A DNA stretch of 13,426 nt, taken from positions 1 to 13,426 of IMG/VR virus record IMGVR_UViG_651053022_000002; one strand, 5' to 3'. This DNA is from a virus (Duplodnaviria; Heunggongvirae; Uroviricota; Caudoviricetes). The notes under the pieces were generated by a model. That model had not been told where the DNA came from. It ran no database searches and was given only the letters and a program-made list of their open reading frames with translations. A program made the translations under genes and the position numbers. Positions 3,166 through 7,343 of the stretch are shown here, one piece after another (within the stretch, counting starts at the first letter, position 1; each line of letters begins with the position of its first letter).

Positions 3166-3480
3166 TTATTCTGGGAATAAGGTCTGAATATTCTTTTTTA
3201 TTTTATAAAAATTGCATTCAACTCCGCTAGGCTGATTATCCTGGTATGTTTCCTTGATGCTAACGGTATTGAAGGGGAGGTTGTCCTCTGGCCATTCGGC
3301 CATCCAGTAGGCAAATGCTGGGTTGCGCTTTATGAGCGCTAGCCCAGCCAGAAAGGCCGCGCGTTGCGCGCGGCTGCGTTCGGAGGCTGGCAGGCTATCG
3401 AGGTAATTGCACGCCTCCTGTTCACTCTTGACGGCGGCGGGCTTCAGATAGAAACTTATCCGTCTGGTTGGTGTCGTCAT
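3166..3480 (-). CDS. parR: ParR-like centromere-binding protein of a type II (ParMR) partition system, 104 aa
   Basis: ATG at 3480..3478 lies 4 nt after the parM stop. MTTPTRRISFYLKPAAVKSEQEACNYLDSLPASERSRAQRAAFLAGLALIKRNP... resembles plasmid R1 ParR as I recall it (RRTIAFKL...LDSIPQGERSRLNRAALTAGLALY). The ORF-track extension to 3615 overlaps parM and is rejected. Confidence 0.75.
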   Translation of the reverse strand: MTTPTRRISFYLKPAAVKSEQEACNYLDSLPASERSRAQRAAFLAGLALIKRNPAFAYWMAEWPEDNLPFNTVSIKETYQDNQPSGVECNFYKIKKNIQTLFPE

Positions 3481-3484
3481 TGGT

Positions 3485-4444
3485 TTACTCCTTGTCCATT
3501 GCGTACAGCCCATTAACCAGAGCAAACTGTGGCACCCCGTCCGCGATGAAAGTCGCATTAACTCCGCAGACTTCGCGGATAGCGGGTGCCACAATCTCCG
3601 CCCCTCCACCGACAACCATCACCCGCCCGTAACCCGAAAAAACCGCCAGCGCGCGGATCACGCGTTGTTTCAGTGTTTCTTCCTTTTCACGAATAACCGC
3701 CATCAGGCTGGCGTAATGCGCGTCATTGTGGATGTGCTGGCGCAGCCAGGCTTCATCATGGCGATGTTCGATAATGGTATTGGCGATGTGGTGACTGGTG
3801 CGCATACCGTTAGTGGCCATCACCGACAGTACGGCATCGGCCATCAGGGAAACGCCTACGTGTGGATCGCAAAACACCTGGCTGATACCTGCCAGTTGCC
3901 CTTGAACCTTTGCCACATCCAGCGTGGTTCCGCCTAAATCCACAATCAGCAGGGATTCAAACGGACTCATGTCAGCCAGTGCTTTAAAGCCAGCCGGAAT
4001 GGATTCAGGCATAACCCGCACGTTACGGATAGTGAATGCTTCGCCGTTCTGGTATTCCACCGGGCGCATAACGTTCGCTTTTTTGCGGTTGATGTTGGCC
4101 ATGTCCGGCTGTGCGTTTGTGTCGAAATACTCGCTCAGTGGCAGGGTGACAACCACATCCACCTCCTGTGGCGTGATGCCTGATTTGACCAGCGCGTGAT
4201 GAATGGCGATTACATTCACATCGCTGTACTGGTATTGCGTGTCGGTCGTCTGGACAAAGCGATCGCTAACCGGATCAAAACCATAGCGCACGCCATCAAG
4301 CATGTAGTTCGCGGGCTGCATGCCACCGAACGGCGCAGACCATTCCGACTTGAAGCTGTTCGGGCTGATGGCGTTGCGGCGTTCGCCATTCTCAGTCCAT
4401 GCCAGCTTGATGTTGGTGGAGCCGTCGTCGATACAAATTTTCAT
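3485..4444 (-). CDS. parM: ParM/StbA-like actin-type plasmid segregation ATPase, 319 aa
   Basis: MKICIDDGSTNIKLAWTENG...ISPNSFKSEW...YSDVNVIAIHHAL...VVVTLPLSEY...LIVDLGGTTLDV... carries the actin-fold phosphate motifs (IDDGSTNIK, DLGGTTLD) and closely tracks my recollection of R1 ParM. AAGGAAAA Shine-Dalgarno precedes the ATG at 4444. Confidence 0.9.
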   Translation of the reverse strand: MKICIDDGSTNIKLAWTENGERRNAISPNSFKSEWSAPFGGMQPANYMLDGVRYGFDPVSDRFVQTTDTQYQYSDVNVIAIHHALVKSGITPQEVDVVVTLPLSEYFDTNAQPDMANINRKKANVMRPVEYQNGEAFTIRNVRVMPESIPAGFKALADMSPFESLLIVDLGGTTLDVAKVQGQLAGISQVFCDPHVGVSLMADAVLSVMATNGMRTSHHIANTIIEHRHDEAWLRQHIHNDAHYASLMAVIREKEETLKQRVIRALAVFSGYGRVMVVGGGAEIVAPAIREVCGVNATFIADGVPQFALVNGLYAMDKE

Positions 4445-4462
4445 GTCGCTTTTCCTTATGTT

Positions 4463-4590
4463 GATTAATTAATCGTTTACGGGATTCTGAAATCCCGTTT
4501 TTGCCTGTTTTGTGCGCGCTTCATATATCGCTGCGCGTTTTTTGCTCATTTACGGGATTCGTAAGTCCCGTTTCTGTCTGTTTTTTGTTT
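4463..4590. repeat. Centromere- or operator-like repeats: the AT palindrome gattaattaatc plus two copies (73-bp period) of a hairpin-containing unit
   Basis: gattaattaatc at 4463..4474. Unit A: acgggatt-ctga-aatcccgt at 4479..4498 followed by T-rich sequence. Unit B: acgggatt-cgta-agtcccgt at 4552..4571, same flanks (tttacgggattc...cccgttt...ctgtttt). Unit A is in the rep-parM intergenic region; unit B is inside the rep 3' coding end. Confidence 0.7.
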
Positions 4591-7343
4591 CCACTGGTCA
4601 GGCCACCCCGCAGCAGGTCTGCTTTGCGGCTGGCGCGTTCAGTGGTTTCACTGATTCTCTGTGCGTGCTCTGCGTCGCGGATGGCGCGCAGCATGTCAGA
4701 AAGCACGGTAACGGGTGTTTTCATGGTGTTCTGGCCCTGCTGAAGTGTGGATGCCAGGCGTGCGGCGGCTTCAGGGTCTGATGCCCCCAGCTGTGCCAGA
4801 TAGCTGGCGACCGGGTTATGGCGGATCTCCGTGCTGCTTACGCCATGATTACGGCTCAGGCGCTGCCAGAGCTGCGTGATTCGGCTGTCCGGGCGGGTAT
4901 CCGGTTTGCGTACAATTTCAAATCCCTGCGGTGCAATGATGCTGCCGTCAACGTACAGACTGCCGCCCCGTAACAGGTGCTGCATCTGTTGTTCACCGAT
5001 ATGCAGGCCGAGAGATTCAGCAGACTCCCGCCATTCTTTAGCGAGTAATTCGTGGTTATCAGGCAAAGGCCGCTGCTGTTTGCGGCTCTGTGTCCAGCTC
5101 TGCATTTCATCGCTGCTGTTTTTTGCCTGTTTGTCACGAAGCGAACGCATCAGCGCCCGGCGTTCGTGTCGTTTCAGTGAGCGCATCCATTCGTTCACTT
5201 CAACGCCGTCAGGGAGCTGCGGCCACGGTGCTGGCCGTTCTTCCGGCTGTTCTGTCCCGTTGTTGTCCGTTTCCTGTACACGGGGACAGTTATTGCCACG
5301 AGTCCAAGGGGCGGCAGGGCCGCCCTGAAGGTCAAAACCATTTTCGCGGGCGCTGTCTTCCGCTTCCGGTTTACGTCTTACCAGCTTCCAGTTATCCGGA
5401 TGCGTGCACACACGGGAGGATTCCCCGATGAGTGGTGACCAGATCCCGTAAATCTGTACGCTCTGTTCGCCGTAATCGTTCAGCTCATCTGCGAGGTCGT
5501 AGGCGGTGCGAATCAGGTAGTCCTTGCGTGGAACAAGCACGCCACCCTGTTTTTCAATGTAGGTGGCAAAACACCCGGCATCGGCGGCAGCGAGTACCGC
5601 ATCCATTGCATCATCTTTCAGCCGTTGCGGGCCTTCCGGATTGCGTGCCATCTGGCTGGCAAGGCGGCGCAGTTCACGCCACACCTGACGGGAGGGGATG
5701 CCAAAGAACTGGAACTGACGGACCCGGTGAAGGCGCGCCCAGCCGATGGCGCGCTCCACGCTCTCGGCCATTGATTTTCCGGTTTCGTGGTCCACGCGTG
5801 GCTTGCCCGTTTTCGGGTCGATGCCATCCACGGCGCGGCTGTCCAGGTTCTTTCCGATGTAGGTGGCGATGTAGCTGGTTGGCGTGCCTTTTGAGCCGTC
5901 GACATACTCCACCTTAAAGCGCGGAGTAATATCATTGCCCAGCTCGTGGCGGTCTTCCTGAATGGCAATATCGCGGGTATGGGACACAATGGTGTCGATT
6001 TCTTCCGGATGTGCAAAGACCATCATATGCCAGTGCACGGTGCCGTCATGATGAGGCTCCACCGTGCGGATGCCATACCAGCGCAGGCCGTCGCGGTTCA
6101 GTTTTTTGCGGACCGCCGCAAAAAACGTGTTAACCAGGTAATCGCTGGAGTCGCGCATTGTGGCCCCGTTCCATTTGGGATTCGGATGACCGTTCTCCGT
6201 TGTGGCGTGGTATTTTGACGGGCAGGTGACAGTCAGAAACACCGCTTTGTCGCCACGGGCTTCGGCCAGAAGTTCCAGTCCCTTCATGGTGGCCATCATT
6301 TCTGCCTTACGGTGAACCGGGTTACTTACTCCCGCGTAATACACTGTCTCGAGATCAATCGTGAACCCGTCTTCATTTTCCAGCATGAAACTTTTCAGGA
6401 AATCGCGTGTTTTCTCGCGCTGTGCGCGAAACTCGCTTAACGCGTCCTGGCTCAGATAGGGTGATGTTTTTCTGGAAACCAGACAGGCGGCGCGGAGTTG
6501 TTCTTCTCTCCACTCGCAACGTAACAGCCACAGTTTGCGTTTCCACCATTCCGCACAGGTCAGGCGAAGGATTGCGCCCGGCAGCAGCTCCGTGTCCGGT
6601 TCGTTCCTCCGGTCTTTGTCTGTTGTCAGTGCGTCATAATGTGGAGGCATGGCGTGCAGGTGTAACGCCATGCGGGCCAGCATCTGATACGCCTTCAGGG
6701 TTACATCCATGGTCAGCTCGCCATCGGTCGCGCCAAAGCCATCGCAGAGTTTTTCGAAGGTGCTGCTGAACATCGCCGCCGTCATGGTGGCCAGCGTCTG
6801 TATCTGGTGTTTGTTGAGCTGCGGCAGGTAAAGCAAATCGTCCAGGCGTTCGCGTCCGGCAAGGGAGCGATAACCCGGTGTCAGCCAGCGTCCGTCAGTG
6901 CTATCCAGACGTTCGAATATTTTGCGCAGGGTTCCGCGTGCATAGCGTTCCGCCTGCCAGCTCTTTTTGCCTTTCCGGCGATCGGCTTCCTGTTTTTTGC
7001 GCAGGAAGGAGAGGTGGCGAATAAGCGGATCGCGCAGATAGGACGGCAGCAGGCGCAGCGAGGCCATGGCTTCATCCACCGCGCCACGTGCCTGTTTTCT
7101 GGCGTCTCCTGCCAGTGTGATGGTTTTGTCCTGTTTTTCCTGTGCGTCCAGGCTTTTATTAATCAGGTTGCCCAGCGGCGTGGCTGAGAACGCCGCATCA
7201 GCCATTTCCTGGCGGCGCTCGTTCTCTGCCCGGTAGGCATCCAGCCAGGAGGAAAGCGCGGATTCAGGAGCGGGGATCCCCGTTCCTTCACGCCCCACTG
7301 CGTGGCGCGGTTGTTGCCAGTCCCTGAGGTACTCTGCCGTCAT
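4521..7343 (-). CDS. Rolling-circle replication initiator (HUH endonuclease, phage P2 gpA / phiX174 gpA superfamily), 940 aa
   Basis: Contains the HUH metal-binding motif (TVHWHMMVF) and, about 50 residues later, the paired-tyrosine motif SYIATYIGKNLD (YxxxY) typical of superfamily-I rolling-circle Reps. No Walker A motif was seen, so it is not a P4 alpha-type primase-helicase. Confidence 0.85.
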   Translation of the reverse strand: MTAEYLRDWQQPRHAVGREGTGIPAPESALSSWLDAYRAENERRQEMADAAFSATPLGNLINKSLDAQEKQDKTITLAGDARKQARGAVDEAMASLRLLPSYLRDPLIRHLSFLRKKQEADRRKGKKSWQAERYARGTLRKIFERLDSTDGRWLTPGYRSLAGRERLDDLLYLPQLNKHQIQTLATMTAAMFSSTFEKLCDGFGATDGELTMDVTLKAYQMLARMALHLHAMPPHYDALTTDKDRRNEPDTELLPGAILRLTCAEWWKRKLWLLRCEWREEQLRAACLVSRKTSPYLSQDALSEFRAQREKTRDFLKSFMLENEDGFTIDLETVYYAGVSNPVHRKAEMMATMKGLELLAEARGDKAVFLTVTCPSKYHATTENGHPNPKWNGATMRDSSDYLVNTFFAAVRKKLNRDGLRWYGIRTVEPHHDGTVHWHMMVFAHPEEIDTIVSHTRDIAIQEDRHELGNDITPRFKVEYVDGSKGTPTSYIATYIGKNLDSRAVDGIDPKTGKPRVDHETGKSMAESVERAIGWARLHRVRQFQFFGIPSRQVWRELRRLASQMARNPEGPQRLKDDAMDAVLAAADAGCFATYIEKQGGVLVPRKDYLIRTAYDLADELNDYGEQSVQIYGIWSPLIGESSRVCTHPDNWKLVRRKPEAEDSARENGFDLQGGPAAPWTRGNNCPRVQETDNNGTEQPEERPAPWPQLPDGVEVNEWMRSLKRHERRALMRSLRDKQAKNSSDEMQSWTQSRKQQRPLPDNHELLAKEWRESAESLGLHIGEQQMQHLLRGGSLYVDGSIIAPQGFEIVRKPDTRPDSRITQLWQRLSRNHGVSSTEIRHNPVASYLAQLGASDPEAAARLASTLQQGQNTMKTPVTVLSDMLRAIRDAEHAQRISETTERASRKADLLRGGLTSGNKKQTETGLTNPVNEQKTRSDI

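Follow-up and report, generated by a model that had tools for sequence, protein, structure and literature searches.

A pair of dyad boxes upstream of parM is a candidate parC-like site in P88-like prophages

We examined a 13,426-nucleotide stretch of viral DNA (the window) that carries a replication gene, rep, and the segregation genes parM and parR, in that order and all on the minus strand. The 4.3 kb around the repeats described below match Escherichia phages vB_EcoM-569R5 and 705R2 and an ST131 prophage record at 100% identity, and P88 and other Xuanwuvirus members (Peduoviridae, P2-like) at 93–98%. By sequence comparison, the window is a P88-like (Xuanwuvirus, P2-like) prophage. The gene order of P88 is early operon, rep, parM, parR and small cargo genes, followed by portal and terminase genes in the opposite orientation. 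This order places the par genes in a variable cargo region, which in P2 contains tin and old. The features of the rep–parM–parR region are the following.

4521–7343, minus strand: rep, GPA-family replication endonuclease of 940 amino acids (Phage_GPA, E 4.9e-131); only its 3′ end overlaps the distal unit
About 5283–5325, minus strand: rep-internal sequence homologous to the P2 ori nick site, with a putative nick between 5305 and 5304
4581–4586: A6 tract, the outer edge of the distal unit and upstream boundary of the mobile par block
4546–4587, minus strand: distal unit, candidate ParR box 1, with palindrome core 4552–4571 and conserved GGG-N10-CCC dyad 4554–4569; in the last ~21 rep codons
4515–4545, minus strand: 31-bp spacer between the units, with the rep stop codon (4523–4521) and a degenerate GCG-N10-CGC dyad (4516–4531)
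4473–4514, minus strand: proximal unit, candidate ParR box 2, with perfect palindrome 4479–4498 and GGG-N10-CCC dyad 4481–4496; intergenic
4463–4474, no strand assigned: perfect 12-bp AT palindrome GATTAATTAATC, 19–30 nt upstream of the parM ATG at 4444
4469–4461, minus strand: sub-box ATTAATCAA of the AT palindrome region (4461–4474), just 5′ of the parM Shine-Dalgarno sequence and kept in Hafnia and Plesiomonas relatives
4445–4457, minus strand: parM ribosome-binding region, AAGGAAAA at 4457–4450, then GCGAC before the ATG
3485–4444, minus strand: parM, actin-like segregation ATPase of 319 amino acids (Pfam StbA_N, E 2.7e-82; ParM C-terminal domain, E 1.1e-68)
3166–3480, minus strand: parR, adaptor protein of 104 amino acids (Plasmid_stab_B, E 1.9e-28)

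The ParM protein matches R1 ParM structures in the PDB over residues 2–316 (E 1e-92). The parR gene directly follows parM and encodes an N-terminal strand-helix-helix, a variable linker and a C-terminal NIxxLFPE tail, as expected of the small ParR adaptor of a type II locus. ParR aligns weakly but specifically to pB171 ParR (PDB 2jd3). It differs from this Plasmid_stab_B protein in being only ~21–30% identical and in its cognate DNA repeats. A structural model of ParR is of modest confidence (pLDDT 67), and a Foldseek search with this model gave no match.

The DNA upstream of parM contains a 42-nt direct repeat (4473–4514 and 4546–4587), identified by a repeat search, with copies that are 83% identical and 73 bp apart from start to start. 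The original prediction, made from the DNA letters alone, had described a unit that occurs twice with a 73-bp period, once in the intergenic region and once in the 3′ end of rep. The repeat search confirms this arrangement; the unit itself is real but, at 42 nt, longer than had been described. The predicted AT palindrome GATTAATTAATC is likewise present at the distance from parM that had been given for it. Type II centromeres consist of repeats upstream of parM that may be split in two blocks (PMC2241845, PMC5016525), and repeated DNA lies directly upstream of parM here as well.

The proximal palindrome, ACGGGATT-N4-AATCCCGT (4479–4498), has perfect 8-bp arms, and the distal palindrome, of the type ACGGGATT-N4-AAGTCCCGT (4552–4571), has one mismatch. 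With up to three mismatches allowed, this pattern has just these two matches in the 13.4-kb window, and two matches were reached in 0 of 200 dinucleotide shuffles. GGG-N10-CCC occurs nowhere else in the window, and the two units are the sole repeat family within 2.3 kb around parMR. Because the rep stop codon lies at 4523–4521, the distal unit falls within the last ~21 rep codons, and the 76-bp rep–parM spacer contains the proximal unit.

The 31 bp between the units (4515–4545) vary more in the P88-like population than any other part of the block. They include a third, degenerate dyad (4516–4531) midway between the boxes and of the same geometry, which reads GCG-N10-CGC in the window and CGCG-N10-CGCG in most relatives; this dyad is not conserved in Hafnia or Plesiomonas. 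The AT palindrome varies as well. In some relatives GGTTAATTAACC replaces GATTAATTAATC, two symmetric substitutions that leave the 12-bp palindrome intact, and others have only one of the two changes (loci L043, L050, L073 and L095). Its ATTAATCAA portion is the only part conserved in Hafnia and Plesiomonas.

We identified 120 loci in viral contigs that match ACGGGATT-N4-AATCCCGT, all except five of which carry the same parM junction. The five exceptions (L045, L056, L116, L120 and L123) are unrelated chance hairpins at non-parM sites. Among the palindrome loci with a parM junction, ParM is 95–99% identical, Rep 31–98% identical and ParR about 50–100% identical. A scan of genome contigs with ParM returned only three near-identical relatives. 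We found more distant relatives by protein search and contig look-ups; P0003 and P0004 proved to have the same junction type, and P0018 comes without upstream DNA.

One viral contig, L051, is particularly informative about which gene the repeats accompany. It encodes a GPA rep of 773 amino acids that is 31% identical, followed by an extra 159-amino-acid ORF, yet it contains both units and parM (97.8% amino acid identity). The A-tract that forms the outer edge of the distal unit (window position about 4587) is the exact point where homology to the window begins, and a second contig, L071, has this boundary as well. Judged by these alignments, the repeats belong to parMR rather than to rep. Since L051 has both units and parM beside a 31%-identical rep, the overlap with rep is a mosaic junction, in which the last ~21 rep codons are par-cassette DNA. 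The original prediction noted that a centromere overlapping the replication gene would be unusual. The overlap is real, but it reflects this mosaic junction, and both units are intergenic in L051.

The last ~21 rep codons show no visible protein constraint, and several Rep C-termini occur among relatives. In 6 of 83 unique junctions (L006, L080, L107, L119 and others), the A6 tract is instead A5 or A7, a change that moves rep into another frame and so alters the Rep C-terminus. These length variants could represent real variation or homopolymer sequencing error. One alternative Rep C-terminus reads through to a TAA within the AT palindrome.

ParM homologues identified by protein search are 62% identical in Hafnia (L134) and Plesiomonas (L136) and 54–59% identical in Serratia and Enterobacter. 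All of these distant homologues are in P2-like prophages, between the GPA rep and the portal gene, and the Hafnia and Plesiomonas layout is rep–parM–parR–portal. Upstream of parM, the Hafnia and Plesiomonas sequences have mostly diverged, yet GGG-N10-CCC occurs exactly twice in each. Relative to the parM ATG, the distal and proximal dyads lie at −125 and −52 in the window, −128 and −55 in Hafnia, and −131 and −59 in Plesiomonas, with a dyad spacing of 72–73 bp in the latter two. By composition-matched shuffles, a GGG-N10-CCC pair 70–76 bp apart has a chance probability of at most 2e-5 per lineage. In a three-way alignment of window, Hafnia and Plesiomonas, only the GGG(A)/CCC of both boxes and ATTAATCAA form invariant islands.

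The inner ten bases of the dyad are not self-complementary in Hafnia or Plesiomonas, so a tight 8-bp stem is confined to the P88-like lineage. On this comparative evidence, the conserved feature is the DNA dyad and not the stem. The distal dyad lies in the rep tail in the window and in Plesiomonas, in a different ORF and frame in Hafnia, and between genes in L051. Coding constraint thus does not explain the distal dyad, as its frame differs, or it is non-coding, between lineages. Units within a lineage resemble each other (83% identity in the window, 81% in Plesiomonas) more than orthologous units resemble each other between lineages, as would be predicted if a single co-evolving protein reads both sites. 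Within the P88-like population, diversity of the block is slightly lower than at synonymous sites (0.044 versus about 0.06), which is weak evidence of constraint.

The next ParM lineage out, in Serratia and Enterobacter prophages (L137, positions 3871–3980, L138, L139 and L140; 54–59% identity), has a different upstream architecture. It comprises 14–19-bp inverted repeats, AGGAACGAAATAGAAAAAT and ATTTTTCTATTTCGTTCCT, that are 26 bp apart, and a GCCGTTTAAACGGC palindrome. The upstream region of these prophages still opens with a window-like CAAAAACGGGAAC motif.

We also compared ParR homologues in these prophages, using 45 cluster representatives that are 39–95% identical to the window protein. 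The stretch R6-R7-I8-S9-F10-Y11-L12-K13 (RRISFYLK), the putative DNA-reading beta-strand, is invariant in all 45, and the next two helices are largely conserved. Residues from about 65 to 95 are hypervariable, and the C-terminal NIxxLFP(E) tail, common to plasmid ParRs, is conserved. The Hafnia and Plesiomonas ParRs retain TRR(I/V)SFYL. In plasmid ParRs that go with other iterons, the strand differs; R1 has RRTIAFKL, and IncI and IncL/M have RKCSFYIY. Within the P88-like population, we detected no association between ParR allele and box variant; both major ribbon-helix-helix alleles occur with the same boxes.

ParR diversity has several further aspects. ParRs form dozens of 90%-identity clusters that are mutually 50–75% identical, while ParM is 95–99% identical in near-identical prophages. 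The variation is centred on residues about 65–95, and the helices occur in two allelic forms. DNA similarity between the window and P88 ends at parR codon 18.

For comparison with known type II centromeres, we used an IncF StbA/StbB locus, taken as R1/R100-type, and an IncL/M locus as controls. In both, the repeats upstream of parM are split in two blocks and form iteron arrays; A/T-tract phasing is strong (p≤0.002), and a central promoter is readily recognised. R1 parC itself spans 159 bp: two sets of five direct 11-bp iterons (5+5) flank a 39-bp promoter region, and the DNA is strongly curved (PMC2241845). The block in the window resembles R1 parC in its position directly upstream of parM, in its two repeat-bearing halves about 70–100 bp apart, and in a coding strand that is rich in A-tracts with some helical phasing. 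The resemblance extends to ParM, which is 47% identical to StbA of the IncF control plasmid, and to a similar Shine-Dalgarno context (CATAAGGA).

The original prediction had proposed a comparison with the repeat architecture of R1 parC, and in detail the two are not alike. Instead of 5+5 direct 11-bp iterons, the window has two 42-nt units with one dyad each. R1 has a promoter (TTGACT-16-TAAACT) in its 39-bp centre, and none is recognisable in the window. The ParR beta-strand is RRTIAFKL in R1 versus RRISFYLK here, and the site in the window overlaps the upstream gene and lies within a phage early operon. Tandem Repeats Finder (TRF), with a minimum score of 30, detected no tandem array of 10–11-bp iterons in the window. 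A-tract helical phasing is weak (p about 0.03), although no other place in the window has stronger phasing, and Hafnia and Plesiomonas show none. AAACG occurs four times versus 0.6 expected in the window, with irregular spacing, and is enriched in two lineages and not in Plesiomonas. We rejected an iteron organization based on A-tract or AAAC phasing, which may at most be an accessory feature. On their sequence organization, the repeats would be an architectural variant of parC.

Several other functions could account for a pair of hairpins at this place. The original prediction judged the hairpins to be poor minus-strand terminators for rep, and a terminator scan agrees: it called no terminator-like site on the minus strand at the rep–parM junction. 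On the plus strand, both hairpins are called terminator-like, with 8-bp stems followed by the T-rich tails TTTTTGCC and TTCTGTCTG, and the distal unit lies at a mosaic boundary. They might act as intrinsic terminators against antisense transcripts that enter from parM, or insulate in both directions at the edge of a moron. Ordinary plus-strand terminators had been named as a result that would speak against the original prediction. The terminator-like appearance of the plus strand is real in this lineage, but no terminator-like sites occur at the homologous Hafnia or Plesiomonas positions, where the tight stem and the T-tracts are lost. Moreover, no plus-strand gene ends nearby, the 960 nt upstream on the plus strand are antisense to parM, and the sole plus-strand promoter-like site is about 1.4 kb away. 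The stems are modest (about −10 kcal/mol), and the T-tail is the complement of the A-tract within the repeat. We consider a terminator function quite unlikely. A role at the RNA level, in which the hairpins would stabilise or help process the rep–parM polycistronic mRNA or modulate translation of parM, is also unlikely, if slightly easier to entertain. Minus-strand RNA of both units folds into hairpins of −9 to −10.7 kcal/mol (z −2.6 to −3.3), and the proximal hairpin lies about 30 nt before the parM Shine-Dalgarno sequence. Across 83 unique P88-like junctions, however, 14 distal and 12 proximal stem variants include 0 compensatory changes in 16 pairs, and the changes in the distal unit are mismatches on the coding-strand RNA. 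One-sided stem changes are G-U-compatible mostly on the plus strand in the distal unit and on the minus strand in the proximal unit; because these fall on opposite strands in the two units, no single strand is favoured. Hafnia and Plesiomonas stems have 3–4 bp with 10-nt loops and energies that are not consistently better than those of shuffles, and neither strand has an Rfam match at E≤1.

A protein-binding function other than that of ParR can be weighed in the same way. The hairpins sit next to rep and partly within it, and hairpins are a frequent nicking target of HUH-type initiators, which would suit an origin or nick site for the GPA Rep. In the P2 record, the experimentally mapped ori nick is at 29892, inside gene A at codon 620. 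We found that the P2 nick sequence, GCCGCGCCTCG/GAGTCCTGTCAATAACTGT (nick at the slash), aligns to GCCGCCCCTTG/GACTCGTGGCAATAACTGT in the window rep, where the position corresponds to codon 620 of P2 gene A. The nick sequence can be aligned to the divergent L051 rep as well, at the equivalent place in the protein. Because the nick site aligns inside both reps, the likely origin is about 750 bp from the repeats and travels with rep, and the repeat block travels with parM. The segment 5283–5325 is, from this alignment, likely the true origin and separate from the repeats. The repeat block is unchanged beside the 31%-identical rep, and its loops vary freely (TCAG, TAAA, CACA, TACG). We therefore rejected an origin or nick function for the repeats, which is extremely improbable given the nick-site homologue inside rep and a block that is not co-inherited with rep type. 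Equally hard to credit is that the repeat is a neutral leftover of a duplicated small ORF or rep 3′ end with no cis function. In-frame peptides of the two units are similar (Rep tail ...TGLTNPVNE versus ...TGFQNPVND in a 27-amino-acid small ORF), and a 31-amino-acid small ORF crosses unit 1 in L051. These small ORFs are not conserved in Hafnia or Plesiomonas, though, the dyad is conserved in spite of differing frames or a non-coding context between lineages, and A-tract length variants give several alternative Rep tails. A larger, still low, probability attaches to the boxes being operators for a non-ParR protein (a phage regulator or host factor) that controls read-through from rep to parMR, with no centromere function. 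The conservation pattern points to a DNA-level dyad site and does not by itself identify the binder; with no promoter in the block, a roadblock or regulatory role is conceivable, and two boxes are few for a parC. The block nonetheless moves with parM–parR among rep backgrounds, ParR is the sole DNA-binding protein encoded in the shared module, and the ParR beta-strand is invariant where the remainder of ParR is divergent.

The short ORFs over the units are a 27-amino-acid ORF in the window (MSKKRAAIYEARTKQAKTGFQNPVND; 4469–4549, minus strand) and the 31-amino-acid ORF in L051 (6952–7047), which has a good Shine-Dalgarno sequence. The C-terminal halves of both mirror the Rep tail. We rejected a small-ORF reading of the region (the 27-amino-acid ORF from 4549 and the L051 ORF), as it has no conservation in distant lineages.

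Several observations point to ParR as the likely reader of the boxes. The linkage of the block to parMR, the conservation of a DNA dyad instead of a stem, and the invariant ParR beta-strand make ParR binding the best supported reading. We conclude from sequence comparison that the block at 4461–4587 probably acts in cis for a type II ParM/ParR segregation module, as its parC-like centromere and operator; the module is cargo that lies between rep and the portal gene of a P88-like prophage. Counting against this reading are the departures from characterised parC sites (two dyad-symmetric boxes, weak phasing, no iteron array and no recognised promoter), the different Serratia and Enterobacter arrangement, the slight constraint on the block in the P88-like population and the modest ParR model. 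The original prediction considered ParR binding or an origin or nick function likely. Its candidate ParR/parC reading is the one that comparative evidence best supports, and its origin reading is not upheld, since the P2 nick-site homologue lies elsewhere.

A plausible mechanism follows from the geometry of the site. Each 42-nt unit would present a 20-bp palindrome with the conserved core GGG-N10-CCC, and we infer that ParR, as a ribbon-helix-helix protein, may bind each palindrome as a pair of dimers. Ribbon-helix-helix repressors such as Arc, Mnt and CopG use ~20-bp dyad operators bound by a pair of dimers. By analogy, this is the mode proposed for each box; the repressor sites differ in being simple operators that overlap promoters, and neither the pairing of boxes at 73 bp nor the link to a filament motor has a counterpart there. 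The 73-bp separation (about seven helical turns) would place both complexes on the same face of the DNA, where they could combine to form a single partition complex. Through their conserved C-terminal tails, the ParR proteins would then capture the ends of ParM filaments, which would push or position the DNA bearing the site. The hairpin potential and the terminator-like appearance on the plus strand would be by-products of a palindromic protein site beside an A-tract.

We found no sigma-70-like promoter within 200 nt upstream of parM, including the spacer and the AT palindrome, even at a lenient threshold. A non-canonical promoter is possible. Since no promoter was recognised in the block and rep and parM have no minus-strand terminator between them, parMR is probably read through from the phage early operon. 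Such co-transcription would leave parMR silent in the integrated prophage and active only in the excised or infecting circle, which would be the DNA that ParM filaments move. A constitutively active centromere in the chromosome would be a liability, and expression by read-through would fit a prophage lifestyle. Tentatively, we propose that a P2-like integrating phage positions or segregates its excised or infecting circles by a minimal two-box centromere and ParMR, during early lytic replication or the establishment of lysogeny, and that the lack of an own promoter keeps the chromosomal centromere silent in the lysogen. We consider this proposal possible but less likely than not. If true, the site would be a promoter-less, palindromic parC variant and the module a Gram-negative counterpart of the AlpAC system of prophage CGP3.

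The Corynebacterium prophage CGP3 is the best functional precedent for ParMR in an integrating phage, as it likewise encodes an actin-like filament protein and an adaptor. Its adaptor AlpA binds repeats (alpS) upstream of its own operon, the system is expressed early after induction, and the excised circle requires both AlpA and AlpC to replicate efficiently (PMC4446434). The proteins come from unrelated lineages, with AlpC only distantly actin-like and AlpA not belonging to the PF10784 ParRs. The alpS motif (TTAAnnG), the host and the phage type differ as well.

We identified the rep–parM junction in 1302 of 5426 complete E. coli genomes (~24%), with up to three copies per genome and 1439 chromosomal places versus two on plasmids. 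ParMRC is a textbook plasmid-segregation machine, and here a close homologue is found in the early operon of an integrating P2-like phage. In the literature on Xuanwuvirus, P88 and P2-like diversity, we found no paper on the par locus of P88-like or other P2-like phages. The two 20-bp boxes offer a small, precise target for asking what actin-like segregation does for a temperate phage. With this site one can also test if two dyad boxes are enough for a centromere, and how a chromosome tolerates resident copies of one. If ParR binds the boxes, the known range of parC architectures would be wider.

The left part of the window, downstream of parR, is unlike P88. Positions 194–1917 encode a CbtA toxin (645–1055), a CbeA antitoxin (1145–1621), a truncated second CbtA (1618–1917) and a DUF5983 protein (194–682). 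These CbtA, CbeA and DUF5983 genes occupy the place of the P88 cargo genes and portal gene. We also detected an 89-bp tandem duplication at 2013–2190 (2.0 copies, 89% identical) within an unannotated plus-strand ORF of 165 amino acids (1963–2460).
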